Below, one piece after another: positions 5,150-55,005 of a DNA stretch of 55,005 nucleotides. The notes beneath the pieces were generated by a model. The model did not search any database. It worked only from the letters and a program-made list of their open reading frames with translations, and was not told the origin of the DNA. The stretch covers positions 1 through 55,005 of the forward strand of contig DASWHY010000275.1 in assembly GCA_036397955.1 (NCBI GenBank), read 5' to 3'. Position numbers and translations under genes: made by a program. Position 1 is the first letter of the stretch; the number at the start of each line of letters is the position of its first letter. The DNA comes from Thermoanaerobaculia bacterium (lineage in GTDB: Bacteria > Acidobacteriota > Thermoanaerobaculia > Multivoradales > UBA5704).

Positions 5150-5848
5150 TCAACCTCCGGGCTCCTCCTCGGCCGAGGAAGTACCCTTCTTGCCGTCCGG
5201 CTCGTTGGCCTTGTCGATCATCGGATCCCTTCCCGGCGTGAAGGGCCGTCCCAGGCGGGTGATGACGAAGAGCTCGATCTCGATCTCCTTGCCGACGAAG
5301 AGAGAGCCGTCGTCCATCACCCGCATCCACGAAACGCCGTATTCGGTGCGGTCGAGGGTGAAGCGGGAATCGGCGCCGAGGAACTCGCTGTGGGCGGTCA
5401 CGCGGAAGGGGATGGCGATCTCTTTGGTGACTCCACGCAGGGTGAGCTCGCCCACCAGGCGGTAGGCGTCGCCGCTTGCGACGTCCCTGTCCACCCGCTT
5501 GCTCTTGAAGGTGATCTCGGGGTGGCTGCCGGTATCGAAGAAGTCGGCCGTACGCAGGTGCTGGTCACGGTCGGCGATGCCGGTGGAGATGCTCGCGGCG
5601 TCGATCACCAGCTCGACGTCCATCGTGGTCAGGTCCTCGGGATCGTGGAGCACGATCGAGCCCTCGAAGGTAGGGAACTTGCCGCTGACCTTGCCGGCGC
5701 CGAGGACCGGCGCCAGGAAGCCGATGGTCGTGTGATTTGCGTCGATCGGATAGCGGATGGCCTGGCGGGGCGCCGGGACCTCTTGGCCGGGAGCGGTGAG
5801 GGCGAGCAGCCCGGCGCCGAGGATCAGGGAGAAGGTGCGTGGTCTCAT
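5150..5848 (-). CDS. YceI-family periplasmic (polyisoprenoid-binding-like) protein, 232 aa
   Basis: ATG 5848 has GGAG upstream. The signal peptide is MRPRTFSLILGAGLLALTAPG. The YceI core is HTTIGFLAPVLGAGKVSGKFPTFEGSI...DRDQHLRTADFFD...HPEITFKS...GELTLRGVTKEI. The ORF-track entry 5150-6379 is an Arg-rich upstream extension that overlaps the cytochrome gene. Confidence 0.85.
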   Translation of the reverse strand: MRPRTFSLILGAGLLALTAPGQEVPAPRQAIRYPIDANHTTIGFLAPVLGAGKVSGKFPTFEGSIVLHDPEDLTTMDVELVIDAASISTGIADRDQHLRTADFFDTGSHPEITFKSKRVDRDVASGDAYRLVGELTLRGVTKEIAIPFRVTAHSEFLGADSRFTLDRTEYGVSWMRVMDDGSLFVGKEIEIELFVITRLGRPFTPGRDPMIDKANEPDGKKGTSSAEEEPGG

Positions 5849-5856
5849 GGGACTCC

Positions 5857-7467
5857 TCAGAGCGTCTTTAGGAAGGCGATCAGGGCGCGCCGTTCCTCGG
5901 CGTCGAGCTTGAGGCCGAAGGGGTGGCCCTTCACGGCGTAGGGCTTGCCGAAGGGCTTGAAGCCGGTGGGGACGTAGCCCTCCTCGACCCGCTTCGGATC
6001 GAGCCAATCCTCGAGGGTCGCGGCCCAGCCGGAGTGACCGAACGGGCCCCGGTACCAGACTCCCTTGAGCGAGGGCACCTTGTAGAGGCCCGTGCCGCGG
6101 CGGGTGTAGAGCGCCAGGCCCGGATCGGTGCCGACGGTGCGGCTGATGATGTCCGCCGCCCGCGGATGGTCCGCCGGCGGCTCGTAGCCGAGGGCCGGCG
6201 TGAGCTTGTTGCTGGTGTAGAGGGGCGGGGTGTGGCAGCGGTTGCACTCCTCGCGCTCGAAGACCTTCTGGCCGCGCGCCGCGAGCTCGTCGAAGGGATG
6301 CGGGCTCGGGGGCGGCTCGAGGGAGTAGACGAAAAGCGCGAGGGCGTAGAGCTGCTCGTCGGTGAAACGCCGCATCCACGGCGGGATCCCCCGCTCGCCC
6401 CGGAGGTCGAGCCCTTCGCCGTCGCCCCAGGTGAATCGGTCGAGAAAGGCCATGCCCTGCTGCAAGGCGCCGTAGCGCATCAGGTCACCGACCGAGCGGT
6501 GCTGGGCATGACCCGTGCGGTCGAGGTAGCGGCGGTCCGCGACGCCGATCAGGTCCGGGATCTGCACGGGGTGGAAGGCGCTGGTGCCGAAACGCGGCTG
6601 GACGCCCGCGGGGATGGCGGCCTCGAGCTCGTAGGTCTCCTCGGGTGTGAGCTCGGCGTGGCGGGCCGTGGGATCCATCTTGCCCGCCCAGGGCACGCCC
6701 CAGGTGCGCGCGATACCGGCGACGCGGTCCCGGACTGCCTTCTCGGGATCTTCCGCCTGGCCGAGCCGTTCCTTGAGGGCCAGGGCGTCGAGGCGCGCCA
6801 GAGGGAAATTGCCCTGGGCTCCCCGGATCACCGAGCCGTCGTCCATTACCCGGGTATGGCAGGCGGCGCAGGAGAACTCGCCGAGGCGGACCTTGCCCTT
6901 CTCGAGCACGAAGTAACGGAAGAAAGGAACGGTGCCGTCGTTCGCGACCGGCACGCCGGTCTTCTCATACCAGGCAGGGTCGCGGACGGTTTCGACCTTG
7001 ACGAGCGCGTCGTATGCGATCGGGGTGGTGAAGACGAGTTCGCCGGCGGCGATCCAGTCCTCCTCGGTCGCGAGCTTCTCCGGGTCGAAGGCGATCTCGG
7101 GCTCGATCTTCTCCAACTTCTCGAGGTAGCCCTCGGGCTCCCGGTCCGGATGGTAGACGGGATAGCTCCTGGCGATGACGCGAGGGGGAATCGAGTAGTA
7201 CTCCTCCGCGGTCAGGTGCTCGACCTTTGCGCCGAGGGCCAGGGGGAGCTCGACGGTGGCGATGGCCTTCTCGTCCCAGGTTCTGGGGATCTCGGGACGC
7301 CAGGGCTCCTCTCGTACCCTCTCCGCTTGCGCGACGGCCTCCGGCGCCGCTTGCTCTGGCGGCTCGACTTCCTCTGGCGGCTCCACCGAGAAGCTCCGCA
7401 GCGCTCCGGCGCCGAACAGGATCAGCGCCGCCGCTGCGGACAGTCGGCCAAGAGCTCTCTTCGGCAT
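5857..7467 (-). CDS. secreted di-haem c-type cytochrome, cytochrome-c-peroxidase/MauG-like, 536 aa
   Basis: The signal peptide is MPKRALGRLSAAAALILFGAGA. There are two CxxCH haem-binding motifs (FSCAACHTRV and EECNRCHTPP). The stop lies 8 nt before the YceI start. Confidence 0.65.
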   Translation of the reverse strand: MPKRALGRLSAAAALILFGAGALRSFSVEPPEEVEPPEQAAPEAVAQAERVREEPWRPEIPRTWDEKAIATVELPLALGAKVEHLTAEEYYSIPPRVIARSYPVYHPDREPEGYLEKLEKIEPEIAFDPEKLATEEDWIAAGELVFTTPIAYDALVKVETVRDPAWYEKTGVPVANDGTVPFFRYFVLEKGKVRLGEFSCAACHTRVMDDGSVIRGAQGNFPLARLDALALKERLGQAEDPEKAVRDRVAGIARTWGVPWAGKMDPTARHAELTPEETYELEAAIPAGVQPRFGTSAFHPVQIPDLIGVADRRYLDRTGHAQHRSVGDLMRYGALQQGMAFLDRFTWGDGEGLDLRGERGIPPWMRRFTDEQLYALALFVYSLEPPPSPHPFDELAARGQKVFEREECNRCHTPPLYTSNKLTPALGYEPPADHPRAADIISRTVGTDPGLALYTRRGTGLYKVPSLKGVWYRGPFGHSGWAATLEDWLDPKRVEEGYVPTGFKPFGKPYAVKGHPFGLKLDAEERRALIAFLKTL

Positions 7468-7632: not shown

Positions 7633-10032
7633 TTGTCGCAGGAATTGCGCCGCGCCGCCCGCAACCTCGTCCGCCATCGCGGCTTCGCCCTCGCCGTGGT
7701 GCTCTGCCTGGCCCTCGGTCTCGCGGCGACGAGCGCCAACTTCAGCGTGGCTTACGGCGTCCTGCTCCGGGCTCTGCCGTACCACGAGCCCCGGAGGCTG
7801 GTCGTCGTCTGGAACCACTTCGGCGACCAGGAACCTGCCCAGCGCGCGCTTTCCGAGCCGGAGCTCGCCGACCTCGCCGCGGAGGGCGACGGCTTCGAAT
7901 CCGTTGCCGGGATGATGGGATGGCGCTTCACCCTGACCGGCACGGGCGAGCCCGAGCAAATCGTGGGCGCGCGGGCTTCAGCCGACCTGTTCCGGGCTCT
8001 CGGCCGCGGGGCCGAGGTCGGCCGGACCTTCCTCGCCCACGAGGACGGGCCCGGCAGCGAGCCGGTGGCCGTGCTCTCCCACGGCTTCTGGCAACGGCGG
8101 TTCGGAGGCGAGCGCCAGATCGTGGGCCGGACGATCGTCCTAAACGGCCAGGCCCACACCGTGGTCGGCGTCATGCCGCCGGGCTTCCGCATCCTCGGCA
8201 ATTACGAGATCTGGACGCCGATGGTCCTCGATCCCGAGCACATGATGCCGCGCAGCGCGCGAGCGGTTCAGGTCTTCGCTCGGCTGCGGCCGGGGATCGA
8301 GCTCGGCGAGGCGCAGGCGCGACTCGACGCTTTGGCGGGCCGCTGGCGCGAGCGCGAGCCGGATCACTATCCCGCCGACGGCTGGCGCCTCACGGCCCGT
8401 CCCCTGCTGGAGGAGATCGTGGGCACGGCCCGGCCGGCGATCCTGGCACGTCTGGCGGCGGGGCTCGCGGTGCTCGTGCTGGCGTGCGGCAACACGGCCC
8501 AACTGCTCCTCGCCCGGGCGGCCCGGCGCGAGGTCGAGACGGCCGTGCGCGCGGCCCTCGGGGCGAGCCGCTGGTTCCTCGGCCGGCCGGCCCTCGCCGA
8601 AGCGACGCTCCTCGCCCTCGCCGGGGGTGTCGTGGGAGTTTTCTTGGCCCGGGCCGCCGTACGGCTTCTTCGCTTTCTCTCGCCGGCGGGGCTCCCGCGG
8701 CTCGACGCCGTCGCCGTCGACGGGCCGGTGATCGTCTTCACCTTTTTCCTGGCTTTCTTGAGCGCTCTGGCCGTGGGCTCGCTGCCGACATGGCGCTCAC
8801 CCCACGAGCGGCTCGCCCGGCTCCTCAAGGAAGGCGGCCGCGGTGCCGGCGCCGCGGCCGGCGGCCGTTTCCTGATCGTCGTCGAGGTGGCGCTCGCCCT
8901 GGTGGTCTTGACGAGCGCCGGCCTTCTGGCCCGGAGCTTCTGGCGCCTCGAAGGGGCGGATCCGGGCTTCCGCCGGCAGGGCGTGCTGACGGCGCAGCTC
9001 TCGCTGCCGCGCTCGAGCTACCCTGAGGGCGCCCTGACGACGGATTTCTTCGACCGGCTCCTCGAGCGGGCGGCGGCTCTGCCCGGCATCCGGGCGGCGG
9101 GGGCGGTTTCGCAACTGCCGCTCACCGGGGGCAGCTTTTCGGGCACGATCGAGATCGAAGGCCAACCGCCGCCGGCCGGCCAGCAGGGGCCCACCGTGGG
9201 CTGGCGGATGGCCACCCCCGACTACTTCCGCGCGATGGACGTTCCCGTCGTCGACGGCCGGCCCTTCGACGGCCGAGACCACGCGGAGGCTCCGGCGGTG
9301 GTGATCGTCGACGAGGGAATGGCGAAGCGGTTCTGGCCGGGGCGCAGCGCCGTCGGCCAACGCCTCGCCCTCGGCGACTGGGCGGACACCGGTCCGCTGA
9401 CGGTGGTGGGCGTCGTCGGCCAGGTGCGCCAGGAGGGTCTCGACCAGGTTCCGCTCGAGCAGCTCTACCTGCCCCTGGCGCAAATGCCGCGCCGGTCCAT
9501 GGCCGTGGTGCTCCGTGCCGAAGGGGATCCGGCCGAGCTCGCCGCGCCCCTACGGCGGCTGGTGACCGAGCTCGACGCCGGCCTCCCGGTCTCCGCGGTG
9601 GCGACGATCGAAGAGCTCCTCGCGTCTTCCCTCTCTGGTTTCCGCACGAACGCCTCGCTCTTCGGCCTGCTGGCGGCGGTGGCCGTCGTCCTCGCGGCCG
9701 TCGGCGTCCACGGCGTCACCGCGCTCTCGGCCGCCCGGCGGACCCGGGAGTTCGGCGTGCGCCTCGCTCTCGGCGGGAGCCGGCGCGACGTCGTACTCCT
9801 GGTGCTCCGCCGCAGCCTGGGGCTCGCCTTGGCCGGCGTCGGCCTCGGGCTGCTCGCGGCCTTCTGGGTGACCCGGATCCTCGCCGCCATGCTCTACGGC
9901 GTCGAGCCCTTCGACCCTCCGACCTTCACCGCCGCCGCGCTCTTCCTGGTCGCCGTCACCCTCCTGGCCGGCCTGCGCCCTGCCTGGCGCGCTTCGCGCA
10001 CCGACCCGATCGCGGCCCTGCGGCACGAATGA
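7633..10032 (+). CDS. ADOP-family duplicated FtsX/MacB-type ABC permease, 799 aa
   Basis: The TTG start at 7633 has AAGGA upstream. The N-terminus (M)SQELRRAARNLVRHRGFALAVVLCLALGLAATSANFSVAYGVLLRALPYHEPRRLVVVW matches the ADOP consensus (LRxLxxxPGFxxxAVLxLALGIGAxxAIFS...LPYxxPxRLV). Two permease halves are present, each ending in FtsX-like TM helices. No ATPase gene is adjacent. Confidence 0.85.
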   Translation: MSQELRRAARNLVRHRGFALAVVLCLALGLAATSANFSVAYGVLLRALPYHEPRRLVVVWNHFGDQEPAQRALSEPELADLAAEGDGFESVAGMMGWRFTLTGTGEPEQIVGARASADLFRALGRGAEVGRTFLAHEDGPGSEPVAVLSHGFWQRRFGGERQIVGRTIVLNGQAHTVVGVMPPGFRILGNYEIWTPMVLDPEHMMPRSARAVQVFARLRPGIELGEAQARLDALAGRWREREPDHYPADGWRLTARPLLEEIVGTARPAILARLAAGLAVLVLACGNTAQLLLARAARREVETAVRAALGASRWFLGRPALAEATLLALAGGVVGVFLARAAVRLLRFLSPAGLPRLDAVAVDGPVIVFTFFLAFLSALAVGSLPTWRSPHERLARLLKEGGRGAGAAAGGRFLIVVEVALALVVLTSAGLLARSFWRLEGADPGFRRQGVLTAQLSLPRSSYPEGALTTDFFDRLLERAAALPGIRAAGAVSQLPLTGGSFSGTIEIEGQPPPAGQQGPTVGWRMATPDYFRAMDVPVVDGRPFDGRDHAEAPAVVIVDEGMAKRFWPGRSAVGQRLALGDWADTGPLTVVGVVGQVRQEGLDQVPLEQLYLPLAQMPRRSMAVVLRAEGDPAELAAPLRRLVTELDAGLPVSAVATIEELLASSLSGFRTNASLFGLLAAVAVVLAAVGVHGVTALSAARRTREFGVRLALGGSRRDVVLLVLRRSLGLALAGVGLGLLAAFWVTRILAAMLYGVEPFDPPTFTAAALFLVAVTLLAGLRPAWRASRTDPIAALRHE

Positions 10033-51634: not shown

Positions 51635-53011
51635 TCAGCTTCCTCCGTCCATGCTGATGCGGACGAGCTCGTCGAGCGAGCGGTCGGGATCCGCGGCCGC
51701 CGCCGCGAAAAGCCGCCGGCAGCGCTCGGCCCAGCCTTCGACCGTCGCCCGCTCGAAGAGGTCGGTGTCCCACTCGAAACCGATCGTCAGGGTGCCGCCG
51801 GCGTCGATGCCGTTGATGGCGAGGTCCAGCATCGCCCCGGCGCGGGAGACGACGCGAGGCTCGAAGGTCACCGGCCCGAGCTCCACCCCGCCCGCGCCGC
51901 CGCCGAAGAGGCGCGCGAGCCGCGCGTCGGCGTCGTCCACCAAGGTCAGGAGCACTTGATAGAGGGGCGAGCGGCCCGAGTCGCGTTTCGGCAGCAGGCG
52001 CTCGACCAGCAACGGGAAAGGCAGGTTCTGCTTTTCGAGGGCCTCGTCCAGGACCTGCCGGGCGTGGTCGACGTGGCGGCGGAAAGTCCGCGTCCGGTCG
52101 CAGGTGCCACGGAGGACGATCGGATTGATGAAATAACCCACCGTCTTCTCGAACCGCGGCTCGGGACGCCCCGGAGCCGGCCAGCCCAGGACGACCTCGT
52201 CCCGACCGCCGATGCTCCCGAGGAGCACCTGGAAAAGCGCCAGGAGGACGACCTCGAAGCCGACGCGCTCCGCCTCGGCCAAGGCCCGAAGCCGCGCTCT
52301 CGGCTCGCCGAGCGCGAAGCGCAGGACGTCGCCCCGGAAGCGCCGGGCCGGAGGACGGGGGCGGTCGGTGGGAAGGTCGAGGGGCGGCAGGTCGGCGAGG
52401 CGTGCCGTCCAGTACGCCCATTGCTCCGCCGCACCGTCGCCGGCGAGAAAGCTCTCCTCCCAGCGCGCGAAATCTCCCGGATGGGCCTCGGGCTCGTCGA
52501 GGAAGACCTGCTCGCCCGACTCCTCGACGGCGAGGAAGAGACCCAGCTCGTCGAGCAGATGGGCGATCGAGAAGAGGTCGGCGGCGACGTGGTGGAGCGA
52601 GAAGAAAACCACCGCGTGGTCGGCGTCACGCCCGAGGACCCGCAGGCGGACCACCGGTCCGTTCTCGAGATCGAAGGGGGTCTGGGCTTCGCGCGCGAGC
52701 CGCTCGTCGACCTCGGCCTCGCTCCAGGCGGCGGCGTCGACCTCCTCGAAGTCGATGGCGCGGCGCGGCTGGATCCATTGCCAGGGCCGCCCTTCGACCA
52801 TCGGGTAGGTCGTACGCAGGACCGCGTGCCGGTCGGCCAGGGCCTGGAAGGCCCGCCGCCAGGTGGCGCCGGACAAGGGGGGCGTCACCCGGCCGGCGTA
52901 CCTCAGGTTGTACGCCGTCAGGCTCGGCGCCAGCTTCTGGAGGAACCAGAGGGCACGCTGGCCGTAGCTGGGCGGAAAAAGCTCACCTGGACCGGAAGTT
53001 CCGACCTCCAT
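51635..53011 (-). CDS. free-standing NRPS condensation-domain protein (VibH-like architecture), ~458 aa
   Basis: Motifs: FPPSYGQRALWFLQKLAP, intact HHVAADLFS (HHxxxD), PTDRPRP, and GYFINPIVLR. There is no A or T domain. The preferred start is ATG 53011 (GAGGTGGAG just upstream; MEVGTSGPGELFPPSYGQ). Alternative in-frame starts are GTG 53020, ATG 53062 and TTG 53101 (the ORF-track start). Confidence 0.85.
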   Translation of the reverse strand: MEVGTSGPGELFPPSYGQRALWFLQKLAPSLTAYNLRYAGRVTPPLSGATWRRAFQALADRHAVLRTTYPMVEGRPWQWIQPRRAIDFEEVDAAAWSEAEVDERLAREAQTPFDLENGPVVRLRVLGRDADHAVVFFSLHHVAADLFSIAHLLDELGLFLAVEESGEQVFLDEPEAHPGDFARWEESFLAGDGAAEQWAYWTARLADLPPLDLPTDRPRPPARRFRGDVLRFALGEPRARLRALAEAERVGFEVVLLALFQVLLGSIGGRDEVVLGWPAPGRPEPRFEKTVGYFINPIVLRGTCDRTRTFRRHVDHARQVLDEALEKQNLPFPLLVERLLPKRDSGRSPLYQVLLTLVDDADARLARLFGGGAGGVELGPVTFEPRVVSRAGAMLDLAINGIDAGGTLTIGFEWDTDLFERATVEGWAERCRRLFAAAAADPDRSLDELVRISMDGGS

Positions 53012-53030
53012 CGTCTCCACCTCAATCTCA

Positions 53031-53036
53031 CGTGCG
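53031..53036 (-). promoter_or_regulatory. candidate -10 hexamer TAGAAT for the NRPS/PKS operon
   Basis: The minus strand reads ggtgTAGAATccggcgcacgtgagattgaggtggagacgATG. This is the best sigma70-like -10 in an otherwise GC-rich stretch, ~20 nt upstream of ATG 53011. The -35 is poor (TTCCCG at 17-nt spacing). If it is used, starts at 53062 or 53101 are excluded. Confidence 0.25.
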
Positions 53037-53152
53037 CCGGATTCTACACCGGCGGGCGCCATCCGGGAAGAGGCAGCTTTCAAGTGGGTGTAACGATGCA
53101 AAGCGACCTCCGCGTCGCGGCTGTACGAGGCTCGGCGCTTGCCACCGTCCGT

Positions 53153-53306
53153 GTCTCACGGTCTCACGCCCTAAGGGGATGAGACCGTGAGACAAACCGT
53201 CTCACGGCGTGAGAGAGCGATGAGACGCAGAGCCCAAACCCCGCGGGAAATCTGGCTGCACGGCGTCTCACGGCGTGAGGCAGGCGTGAGAATCCGGTGT
53301 CTCACG
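53153..53306. promoter_or_regulatory. array of GTCTCAC/GTGAGAC heptamers forming palindromes and hairpins (candidate operator array or structured element) upstream of the operon
   Basis: Six perfect copies start at 53153, 53161, 53187 (reverse), 53199, 53265 and 53299, plus at least five one-mismatch copies. There is a perfect 14-bp inverted repeat, GTCTCACGGTCTCA (53153-53166) / TGAGACCGTGAGAC (53180-53193), with a 13-nt loop. The palindrome TCTCACG-G-CGTGAGA lies at 53200-53214 and a near copy at 53266-53280. CGTGAGA-n8-TCTCACG lies at 53285-53306. Confidence 0.6.
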
Positions 53307-53378
53307 GGGGTGCTGAAAACGAACCCCGTTTCCTGGACCGCGGCTCGGACTTGACCTTGCCACCCTTGCCGGGAGCCG

Positions 53379-53495
53379 CGTCCCTGACGAGCACAGGCCC
53401 TGCGGTCGTCAAGGATAACCCGTCCCTGACGAGCACAGGCCCTGCGGTGGTCAAGGACTGATCCGTCCCTGACGAGCACAGGCCCTGCGGTCGTC
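53379..53495. repeat. 42/43-bp tandem repeat, 3 copies
   Basis: The unit cgtccctgacgagcacaggccctgcggt(c/g)gtcaagga starts at 53379, 53421 and 53464. Two degenerate units lie further on (core GCCCTGCGGT at 53625 and 53667, again 42 nt apart). Confidence 0.85.
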
Positions 53496-53587
53496 CGCCG
53501 TCGCATCGAAGCGAGTCCGGCCGACGAGGTCGAAGCGCACCCGGATCGACATTGCGCACGCGCGAGGCGAAGCGAGCCGTCAGGCAC

Positions 53588-53606
53588 CCCCCTTTGAAAA
53601 AGGGGG
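53588..53606. repeat. GC hairpin CCCCCTTT-gaa-AAAGGGGG (REP-like), between the two parts of the 42-bp array
   Basis: An exact 8-bp inverted repeat with a 3-nt loop. It has the same stem/loop geometry as the hairpin in the 57-bp repeat at 29-185. Confidence 0.7.
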
Positions 53607-53701
53607 ACAGGGGGGATTTCCGCAGCCCTGCGGTCATGAAGGACGAATTGCCGTTGAGGACCACAAGCCCTGCGGTCAGGACGCGAGTACCGCTGCAATA
53701 C

Positions 53702-54841
53702 TCAGCGCCGAGCGACCGAGCCCGCTTCCTCGCGGCCGCAGAGCGCGATCTCGGTCTCGGTGCCGACGCAGAGCGCCAGCAGGTCGCTTTCCGAAAAGCC
53801 TGGGCCGCGCACGATGCGCGGCGTCAGCACCAGGACGACCTCGCCCGGGCCGGCGGGAAGGTCGAAGCGCGACGCCAGCCACGAGCCCGTCTCGCCCGTC
53901 GCCGGCTTTTGCAGCCCCGCCACGAGGACGCCGTCGCCGCTGCGGATCCGCATCCCGGACTCGACGTTGCGGCTGCTGGTCGCCGGCGGGCCGCCGCGGG
54001 TGGCGTCGGTGGCGGCCACCGCCACCTCGAGCGTGACCTCGTCGCTGGCCGCGTGGACCCGCGGCTCGACCTTGAGCTCGAAGCCGACGTTGATGAAGGA
54101 AACGTCGGTGCCGGCCGAGGCGATCGCCAGCTTGTCCTCGAGGACCCAACGGCCGCTGTCGCCGTCGAGCACGCTCAGCTCCTGGCCGGTCAGGCGGCGC
54201 GCCGACCGCATCAGCGCCGCCCGCTCTTCAGCCGCGATGGGGTTGGCCTCGGCGCTCCAACGCGCGAGCGCGTCGGAGTCCAGGAAGAGCAGGTCGACCC
54301 TGACGGCCACCTCCCCCCGCGGCTTGTCGACCCGCCGCAGGATCTCCCCGATCACCTCGACCTTGGCGGCCGTGTCGCGCACGACGAGGCTGTTGAGGCC
54401 CTCGTGGGCCACGACGCTCTTGGCGCCCACCATCGTCCGGACGAGGGTCATCGCGTCCGGAAGCGGCAGGTTCTCGAGGTGAAAGGTGCGGACCACCTGT
54501 TTCTCGTAGGTGCGCCGCATCTGCGGCGTGTCCTCGGCGATGAGGACCGTGCCCTCGTCGAGCGCGGTGGCGAAGTGACCGGCGGCGCGCGTCAAGGTGT
54601 CGAGGGCGCGGTCGGCGCGGACGTCCTCCAGCTCGATGAAGATCCGGCGGTCCCTGAGCTCGGGATCGAAGATCACCTTGACGCCGGCGGCCTTGCCCCA
54701 GGCCCGGTAGACGTTGACGGCCGGCGTCGGCTCCGGGAAGTCGAGGTCGACGGGCTTGTCGAGGTCGGGGGCGGAAGTCGAAGCGCCGGCGGCGGCGACG
54801 GTCAGCAGCAAGATACACGTCGAACGTAGGAGTGAACGCAT
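53702..54841 (-). CDS. secretin-family (type II/III secretion / PilQ-GspD-like) outer-membrane protein, short form, 379 aa
   Basis: ATG 54841 has GGAGG 7 nt upstream. The signal peptide is MRSLLRSTCILLLTVAAAGAS. A secretin N-domain pattern is present: FHLENLPLPDAMTLVRTMVG...NSLVVRDTAAKVEVIGEILRRVDKP. The C-terminal secretin-like segment is RNVESGMRIRSGDGVLVAGL...VVLVLTPRIV. Confidence 0.55.
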   Translation of the reverse strand: MRSLLRSTCILLLTVAAAGASTSAPDLDKPVDLDFPEPTPAVNVYRAWGKAAGVKVIFDPELRDRRIFIELEDVRADRALDTLTRAAGHFATALDEGTVLIAEDTPQMRRTYEKQVVRTFHLENLPLPDAMTLVRTMVGAKSVVAHEGLNSLVVRDTAAKVEVIGEILRRVDKPRGEVAVRVDLLFLDSDALARWSAEANPIAAEERAALMRSARRLTGQELSVLDGDSGRWVLEDKLAIASAGTDVSFINVGFELKVEPRVHAASDEVTLEVAVAATDATRGGPPATSSRNVESGMRIRSGDGVLVAGLQKPATGETGSWLASRFDLPAGPGEVVLVLTPRIVRGPGFSESDLLALCVGTETEIALCGREEAGSVARR

Positions 54842-54956
54842 TGCGAGTCCTCCGGTTGGCGAAAGCGGTTTGTCGGGGATGGCTGATCGTGGTGGCCACC
54901 ACGTGCGTTTCTATTCATCGTTTACGGAGATAGGATCAGGAGCGTTGGGACGCACG

Positions 54957-55005
54957 ATGATCGCCGAGACGATGATCGCCGAGACGCCGCGCCTGGTGCT
55001 GCGCC
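54957..55005 (+). CDS. 5' end of a probable GNAT-family N-acetyltransferase (partial, runs off the window)
   Basis: It reads MIAETMIAETPRLVLR. The ETxRLxLR motif is the usual RimJ/RimL-type GNAT N-terminus. Only 16 codons are visible, and the first 30 nt are a 15-bp tandem duplication. Confidence 0.35.
   Translation, partial: MIAETMIAETPRLVLR

Follow-up and report, generated by a model that had tools for sequence, protein, structure and literature searches.

A GTCTCAC heptamer array inside a Thermoanaerobaculia biosynthetic gene cluster: a candidate orphan copy of a repeat module associated with RepA-like helicase genes

In a stretch of 55,005 nucleotides from a Thermoanaerobaculia bacterium (GenBank assembly GCA_036397955.1, contig DASWHY010000275.1, positions 1 to 55,005; the whole of it is called the window), we examined a dense array of the heptamer GTCTCAC and its reverse complement GTGAGAC, which precedes one of the minus-strand biosynthetic genes of the window, encoding a free-standing condensation-domain protein (51635-53011). 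The reading towards which we lean, with somewhat more confidence than doubt, is that the array would be an orphan, iteron-type copy of a repeat module normally accompanying genes for helicases that resemble RepA of plasmid RSF1010 and carry a helix-turn-helix (HTH) domain. We observed the array itself, a homologue of the whole array in a related metagenome contig, the presence or absence of the array between close relatives, and an association of the same motifs with helicase-HTH genes. Rather than serving the antibiotic-type gene cluster in which it lies as a switch, the array is probably a stray copy of a protein-binding repeat module, since the same array adjoins unrelated genes and directly follows the replication-helicase genes of genomic islands.

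Exact copies of the heptamer number seven in the window, against 5.85 expected from shuffles, and six of them start at 53153, 53161, 53187, 53199, 53265 and 53299. When one mismatch is allowed, 11 heptamers (six exact and five with one mismatch) fall within 160 bp (53153-53305), which, given a window background of 1.4 one-mismatch copies per kb, corresponds to a Poisson P of about 1.5e-15; nowhere else in the window does a stretch of 160 bp come near 11 copies. The clustering reported in an earlier, sequence-only reading of this DNA, with six perfect and at least five one-mismatch copies in about 150 bp, is therefore confirmed at the order of 1e-15. Within the approximately 65 kb that are known of the source genome, we found one array and one stray heptamer. 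With its 11 heptamers, the array shows the clustering expected of an iteron-type array, in which a short motif is repeated at least six times over a few hundred bp.

The heptamers are organized in two blocks, 53153-53226 and 53265-53305, with both orientations in each, around a 37-nt spacer (Table 1). The centre-to-centre spacings are 8, 18, 8, 12, 10, 11, 45, 10, 11 and 13 bp, many neighbouring copies thus being 10 to 13 bp apart, approximately one helical turn. Read on the minus strand, the order is single heptamers, a palindrome, the spacer, a single heptamer, a palindrome and the big hairpin. Repeat analysis recovered the 14-bp perfect inverted repeat of this hairpin (53153-53166 and 53180-53193, with a 13-nt loop), as it had been described earlier, with extended arms of 21 nt that are 90% complementary; as single-stranded DNA, the hairpin folds with -20.5 kcal/mol (z = -9.7). 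The divergent heptamer pair at the far end of the array was likewise found as described. As for the two palindrome copies said to lie in a repeat spaced by 66 bp, the spacing stands, whereas the second copy is imperfect (TCTCACGGCGTGAGG at 53266-53280). The near-copy that had been placed at 53015-53021, between a candidate -10 element and the ribosome-binding site (RBS), is in fact the ATCTCAC listed in Table 1; it is probably a chance occurrence and not part of the array, since the background of 1.4 such copies per kb is compatible with one.

Table 1. Coordinates in the window of the heptamer array and of the repeats near it; none of the features is assigned to a strand
Feature	Position	Description
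Isolated one-mismatch heptamer	53025-53031	ATCTCAC; between the candidate -10 and the condensation-gene RBS; outside the region homologous to L159
Double-heptamer palindromic hairpin	53152-53194	TGTCTCAC-GGTCTCAC, loop, ATGAGAC-CGTGAGACA; two heptamers with an 8-bp period per arm
Palindrome B	53197-53215	GTCTCAC-GGC-GTGAGAG; two convergent heptamers
Single one-mismatch heptamer	53220-53226	ATGAGAC; 11 bp beyond the preceding heptamer; kept in L159 as cgATGAGAC
Spacer between the heptamer blocks	53228-53264	37 nt; diverged from L159, with the flanking heptamers kept
Palindrome D	53265-53281	GTCTCAC-GGC-GTGAGGC; second copy of module B, 66 bp away; repeat family of 28 nt, 82%
Divergent heptamer pair	53285-53306	CGTGAGA-atccggtg-TCTCACG; DNA fold -6.3 kcal/mol, z = -3.4; kept in L159
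42/43-nt tandem repeat	53379-53495	Period 42, 2.7 copies; bounds the array, and assemblies diverge there; context, not part of the array

A homologue of the whole array was found in a related Thermoanaerobaculia contig of the metagenome set (L159), with 83% identity over 162 nt (nhmmer E = 8e-29). In this comparison, 74 of the 77 heptamer columns are identical (96%), against 50 of the 78 other columns of the array (64%; Fisher p = 4e-7), and the few differences within heptamers are non-compensatory. Palindrome D reads GTCTCAC-CCC-GTGAGAC in L159, with an altered centre and preserved heptamers. Since the heptamers are kept, the spacers have diverged and the changes are non-compensatory, the comparison indicates that selection acts on the heptamer sequence itself. 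The homology breaks off abruptly at the border of the first hairpin, and the left flank is 38% identical, which is the random level. The L159 array is situated 171 nt upstream of a gene for an S-adenosylmethionine (SAM)-dependent methyltransferase, whose closest named relative is from Thermoanaerobaculia. No array is present on the contigs that carry relatives of this methyltransferase with 96%, 87% and 77% identity and, with respect to the contig of the 96% relative (L252), the DNA of L159 is 96% identical only beyond a point some 25 nt ahead of the ATG. Because of this absence and of the point at which identity begins, the alignments indicate that close relatives differ in whether they carry the array-bearing segment, which in different genomes is found next to unrelated genes.

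The hairpin belongs to a broader family, which we defined by the pattern GTCTCACnGTCTCA-N4-30-TGAGACnGTGAGAC, with 26 specified bases and essentially no chance matches expected. Metagenome contigs contain 108 exact-pattern loci, and both the window (53153-53193) and L079, a contig of a metagenome-assembled genome (MAG) of Steroidobacteraceae, match the pattern too; viral contigs gave no match, and neither did plasmids when searched by blastn with the array DNA. A scan of genome contigs, one genome per species, with the 16-mer CGTCTCACGGCGTGAG returned at least 119 single matches, mostly due to chance, 25 of which complete the palindrome, as expected since hairpins are generally enriched; the useful ones were L079 and L128. 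The array of L079 comprises nine exact heptamers in 200 bp and shares with the window the double-heptamer hairpin, a spacer and the GTCTCACGGCGTGAGA palindrome, which is the palindrome B module and also occurs in L159. In the direction of the adjacent helicase gene, L079 starts with single heptamers and the palindrome of GTCTCACGGCGTGAGA type; a spacer of 38 nt separates these from the big hairpin, after which come direct repeats; when the window and L159 are read in the same direction, the next gene follows in that direction in both. The hairpin sequence is kept across phyla and at GC contents from 41 to 71%, and the direct heptamer runs of L223 and L079, 11 to 12 bp apart, are unable to form hairpins. 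Conservation of the heptamers rather than of the spacers, the spacing of 10 to 13 bp and these unpairable direct repeats fit the earlier suggestion of a multi-site protein-binding or structured DNA element.

The clustering of the open reading frames (ORFs) near the 108 hairpins yielded one informative protein family, an AAA_25 (PF13481) ATPase with a C-terminal HTH_7/HTH_23 domain. This helicase-HTH family comprises more than 4,000 proteins at E <= 1e-20, called, where they have a name, "putative DNA primase/helicase" or "AAA family ATPase", and its sole relative in PDB is the hexameric RSF1010 RepA helicase (1G8Y, E = 9e-7); in L223, an N-terminal Toprim primase region is fused to the helicase and the HTH. 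The gene is present at about 15 of the 108 hairpin loci, as well as in L079, and wherever its end lies on the contig, the hairpin or the first heptamer follows the stop codon by approximately 3 to 60 nt. In particular, the array is located 3' of the helicase gene in L079, L145, L156, L187, L223, L228, L240 and L245. A genome should contain one such gene or a few, and at that frequency the placement after the stop codon cannot be due to chance. Furthermore, four arrays of the metagenome set have at least four extra heptamers: three are helicase-adjacent (L223/L141, L228), and the fourth is that of L159.

The neighbourhood of these genes, some of which lie in islands with integrase and AlpA genes, suggests that they mark small cargo islands. 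L240 shows the order tyrosine integrase, AlpA-like gene, array, helicase-HTH gene and Xre-like gene, which is that of an integrative island; in L079, the helicase-HTH gene is followed by the array, an ORF similar to single-stranded DNA-binding protein (SSB) and an AlpA-like ORF; and in L245, hairpins precede the element and are found again immediately past the stop codon of the helicase gene. Helicase genes that were fetched independently of the hairpin adjoin cargo for cyclic oligonucleotide-based antiphage signalling (CBASS) or mercury resistance. Among plasmids, the helicase-HTH protein matched only five records, including plasmid 2 of Nitrobacter; phages gave no match.

Nitrobacter plasmid 2 also provided a GTCCCGC variant of the motif. 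In Nitrobacter hamburgensis X14 (NC_007960.1, approximately 141701-141756; L244, 4680-4735), two copies of TGTCCCGC, a loop and two copies of GTGGGACA reproduce the double-octamer architecture directly 3' of a truncated helicase-HTH gene whose HTH bears SKSRVDR, while C termini with G[VI]SRAT.YR accompany GTCTCAC. In L249, where the HTH reads SRSRSYR, five GTTTCCCAC/GTGGGAAAC repeats, partly palindromic, lie upstream of the gene (5740-5860). It is possible to suppose, on the basis of these few cases, that the motif variant tracks the HTH variant; the correspondence is suggestive but not clean. As to the surroundings of these loci, the Nitrobacter locus is flanked by a CBASS/SAVED module on one side and by a DNA methyltransferase/helicase module on the other, the L249 gene, a 55%-identical helicase-HTH, is followed by a CBASS system (JAB, Cap15, DncV-like, E1/E2), and the equivalent helicase gene of L247 is followed by a mer operon. 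GGGACAG-type repeats stand beside GTCTCAC hairpins in the soil contigs L226, L227 and L229.

According to the orphan-module reading, a complete module would consist of a palindrome with two heptamers per arm and of further palindromic or single heptamers, for the most part spaced by roughly one helical turn and arranged in two blocks around a spacer. We infer that the heptamers are iteron-like binding sites for the HTH domain of the helicase and that, in complete elements, the array right after the stop codon may act as an origin or control region, as in the pathogenicity islands of Staphylococcus aureus (SaPIs), phage-inducible chromosomal islands (PICIs) and phage P4. The window copy is most likely a relic or a hitch-hiking copy, since no cognate gene occurs within 10 kb upstream or 53 kb downstream. 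Any activity would then come about only if a cognate protein, with its gene at another place in the genome, bound the array, or by way of hairpins that form in read-through RNA, and the orphan array could equally be inert. Protein binding, origin function and any effect on the gene cluster are proposals.

The closest parallel is offered by SaPIs, in which 6 to 12 iterons, immediately downstream of rep and in opposite orientations around a central region, are recognized by a self-loading Rep helicase via a C-terminal winged helix (PMC9371898). The arrays of the window's relatives resemble those of SaPIs and PICIs in the cluster of 6 to 12 short repeats directly 3' of a helicase ORF, in the two orientations of these repeats and their division into two groups about a central part, and in the C-terminal DNA-binding domain of the helicase. 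However, the SaPI Reps are AAA+ proteins like minichromosome maintenance (MCM) helicases, while here the ATPase is RSF1010-RepA-like (PF13481; 1G8Y); moreover, the present repeats are heptamers and include a conserved double-heptamer palindrome, the spacer is not AT rich, and the rep gene is missing from the window. In phage P4, the C-terminal domain of the alpha primase-helicase, which belongs to a different helicase superfamily, binds octamers, TGTTCACC, clustered at ori, and a second, rep-less repeat cluster, crr, acts in cis. The octamer TGTCTCAC of the hairpin is of similar size, and the L223 protein, with its fusion of Toprim, helicase and HTH, recalls alpha; the likeness is one of description, not of sequence comparison, and phage and viral collections gave no matches. 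RSF1010 (IncQ) RepA, the only related protein with a solved structure, shares with the family the Pfam domain AAA_25. RepA itself has no HTH, and the IncQ iterons are bound by a separate initiator, RepC, different from the helicases considered here, in which the DNA-binding domain is fused to the helicase.

Several observations weigh against the array being an orphan of a helicase module. Neither an AAA_25-HTH nor an integrase homologue is encoded in the window or in three further assemblies of the same locus (L004 to L006, described below), which together cover 10 kb upstream and 53 kb downstream, and the spacer has a GC content of 68%, against 73% for the window, so that it is not AT rich. 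L154 and L225 combine a different helix with GTCTCAC hairpins, and in L247 no repeat is obvious. Most of the metagenome hairpins occur singly, as part of intergenic repeat mosaics near which no helicase gene can be seen, and the hairpin may have a role that is independent of the helicase. In addition, the array lies 140 to 170 nt upstream of a gene of the same orientation in both the window and L159, a position at which a promoter-proximal role would be possible. A binding protein encoded in the source genome is putative, as are replication from the array and an effect on the nonribosomal peptide synthetase (NRPS) genes.

The abundance of solo hairpins leads to the first alternative, which we regard as rather unlikely, namely, that the hairpin is a dispersed palindrome comparable to the repetitive extragenic palindromic (REP) sequences and bacterial interspersed mosaic elements (BIMEs) of enterobacteria, unrelated to the helicase and acting through DNA or RNA structure (punctuation, stabilization of mRNA 3' ends, termination or binding of host factors), so that the array would be a local pile-up. 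Like REP/BIMEs, which are imperfect intergenic palindromes of about 40 nt, often mosaic, between convergent or consecutive genes, the window hairpin is an imperfect palindrome in intergenic position within the usual 20 to 40 nt; it folds strongly, and a second repeat family lies next to the array, in a gap rich in repeats. For 91 of the 114 hairpins of the metagenome set, the vicinity holds no extra exact heptamer, many of them standing in mosaic repeats beside palindromes such as TGCACAAnnnTTGTGCA, and several contigs (L187, L195, L245) show two or three hairpins between consecutive genes. However, it is the sequence of the motif rather than its pairing that is kept across phyla and GC contents, with non-compensatory stem differences between the window and L159 and with the unpairable direct repeats of L223 and L079. 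A location a few bases past the stop codon of helicase-HTH genes recurs too often to be due to chance, the known part of the source genome contains a single array, and no REP-associated tyrosine transposase (RAYT) was seen. The sequence-only reading had considered a generic dispersed repeat as an outcome that would speak against an operator; the hairpin family is in fact widespread, both after RepA-like helicase-HTH genes and as solo intergenic copies, which counts against the operator explanation.

With regard to the solo hairpins, those of L139, L144, L153, L227, L229, L233 and many more of L136 to L243 lie in mosaic repeats together with the TGCACAAnnnTTGTGCA palindrome and motifs like ttggcagaacgaacccaa in either orientation. 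Many of them adjoin genes of the TctC/Bug family, and the named helicase homologues point to Reyranellales/Enhydrobacter.

The operator explanation depends on where the array stands relative to the biosynthetic genes, and on this point the window requires correction. The identical condensation protein was found on contigs of other assemblies. Three of these are independent, namely, L004 (part of a contig of 125 kb), L005 and L006 (which stems from a JGI sample). In all three, the upstream DNA equals that of the window for 404 nt, array included, after which 7 to 8 copies of a 43-nt repeat follow and then an NRPS gene of 5327 aa in the same orientation, which ends 1.1 kb upstream of the condensation gene. 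The window presents instead, at 53702-54841, a gene for a secretin-like protein, which occurs elsewhere on short contigs; one of these (L001, from the same assembly as L005) starts exactly at window base 55005, matches the window as far as 53379 and continues with more copies of the 43-nt repeat and then different DNA. The window thus joins two loci via a repeat unit shared by both, at 53379-53415, and the attachment of its secretin end (the final 1.6 kb, 53379-55005) is most likely due to chimeric assembly, a real recombinant being less likely. Chimera or recombinant alike, the array sits inside the cluster, in a repeat-rich gap of 1.1 kb between two co-directional NRPS genes, and not upstream of the start of an operon as had been supposed; likewise, the cluster probably does not begin with the gene at 51635-53011, since the DNA beyond about 53415 differs in the other assemblies. 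The earlier remark that no regulator gene is present agrees with the surroundings of the array, in which none is adjacent: the neighbour is the NRPS gene in the other assemblies and the secretin-like gene in the window.

On these grounds, we consider it improbable that the array is an operator or upstream-activator array of a dimeric transcription factor controlling the condensation gene and the downstream polyketide synthase (PKS)/NRPS genes, as had been proposed in the sequence-only reading. Such a role would agree with the palindromes and their spacing of about one helical turn and with the position of the array, which precedes the ATG at 53011 by 140 to 295 bp and also lies upstream of a candidate -10 element on the minus strand (TAGAAT, 53041-53046, extended -10 candidate TGTAGAAT, 53041-53048); the L159 array has the same orientation relative to the gene 171 nt downstream of it. 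Homologous clusters carry TAGAAT/TACAAT elements before the condensation gene, which therefore probably has its own promoter. The gene that follows in L159 is, however, unrelated, and its closest relatives do not have the array, which moreover is not at the start of the cluster, has no regulator gene nearby and belongs to a family tied to helicase-HTH genes. A scan for sigma-70 consensus promoters between 52900 and 53750 found none. A sigma-54-like element, TGGCAAGCGCCGAGC, spotted by eye beside the hairpin on the gene strand, was discarded for its poor -12 element and for having no counterpart in L159.

The comparison with homologous clusters had been indicated as a way of checking the operator hypothesis. 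Among named proteins, those most similar to the condensation protein come from Thermoanaerobaculia and reach at most 46% identity; we considered L011 and L012/L013, with the same condensation gene and the same PKS/NRPS architecture, and L014 to L016, with the closest homologue of the condensation gene but without that downstream gene. GTCTCAC was absent from all of these distant homologues (44 to 46% identity), upstream of the gene or elsewhere in approximately 20 kb. Since the homologues are distant, this absence would be weak evidence when taken alone.

A structured RNA had also been put forward; whether as a small RNA of four hairpins or as an attenuator or leader belonging to the NRPS transcript, it seems to us extremely unlikely. 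The minus strand, which is the sense of the genes, does fold better than shuffles (-50.7 kcal/mol, z = -3.4 as DNA), and read-through from the co-directional upstream NRPS gene could produce the RNA. Nevertheless, a search of Rfam 15 with both strands of 52800-55005 gave no match at E <= 1, and the loops and spacers diverge while the stems stay identical, with no compensatory changes, the identical heptamer being present in every stem and also as unpaired single copies. The main hairpin has no U tract of the kind that follows a terminator stem: in the search for intrinsic terminators, it showed no T run, and the one weak match, a 6-bp stem at 53200-53214 on the minus strand, compares with 0.6 expected in shuffles.

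As far as the novelty of the orphan-module reading is concerned, repeat arrays tied to the helicases of islands and satellites are of a known kind. The RepA-like helicase-HTH fusion with a conserved double-heptamer palindrome, motif variants, and solo and orphan copies appears to be undescribed; no paper was found in the searchable literature with the double-heptamer strings, and searches of the iteron literature returned nothing matching. For cluster mining, it follows that the array is unsuited as a regulon marker or as an engineered operator, and that the apparent first gene and upstream region of this cluster are partly an assembly artefact. For the study of mobile elements, the pairing of helicase-HTH gene and array recurs from AT-rich contigs to contigs of 71% GC, variants, solo copies and rep-less arrays included. 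If the binding were real, the heptamers would provide a simple sequence signature for finding such island replicons, and the window would offer an example of a biosynthetic cluster in which origin-like DNA has become stranded. A more far-reaching hypothesis, which we hold to be very improbable, is that GTCTCAC arrays and helicase-HTH proteins form a widespread, undescribed replicon or control system of islands in Acidobacteriota, Alphaproteobacteria and Gammaproteobacteria, and that orphan arrays, bound in trans by an island-encoded helicase-HTH protein, couple secondary metabolism to the activation of mobile elements via local over-replication or gating of NRPS read-through; over-replication would, in that case, raise the gene dosage of the cluster.

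Other repeats surround the array. The 43-nt repeat unit, GTCCTTGACGACCGCAGGGCCTGTGCTCGTCAGGGACGGATCA on the minus strand, forms an imperfect hairpin (-11.3 kcal/mol, z = -3.2) and occurs in the window at 53379-53495, with diverged units at 53625-53676, in L004 at 9300-9640 and in L001 at 1500-1860. The second array of this repeat, after the secretin gene, implies at least two loci in the source genome, and the repeat is absent from every other locus that was fetched. The 1.1-kb gap of L004 contains no convincing small ORF. For the 43-nt repeats and the hairpins, we discarded clustered regularly interspaced short palindromic repeats (CRISPR), integron attC sites and transposon ends, as none of the associated genes is present. 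A GC-rich hairpin that resembles a terminator stem, CCCCCCTTTGAAAAAGGGGG, lies at 53588-53612, about 90 to 115 nt past the stop codon of the secretin-like gene (minus strand), and a similar element, CCCCCTCAGGAAAGGGGGAGGGGG, follows the repeats in L001.

Two perfect tandem repeats are found at the extremities of the window, one of 57 nt at 29-185 (2.8 copies, 100% identity), at what is likely a contig end, and one of 15 nt, ACGATGATCGCCGAG, at 54954-54986 (2.2 copies). Elsewhere, a plasmid of Halomicrococcus (L070, 521-597) carries two GTCTCAC-N3-GTGAGAC palindromes upstream of a methyltransferase-like gene. Finally, GTCTCACGTCTCACGGCGTGAGAC is conserved in intergenic position in three Streptomyces genomes (L098, 4499-4523; L090, 1929-1953; L051, 4766-4790), flanked by putative genes that, from translations judged by eye, are similar to those of an anti-sigma antagonist and a cob(I)alamin adenosyltransferase.

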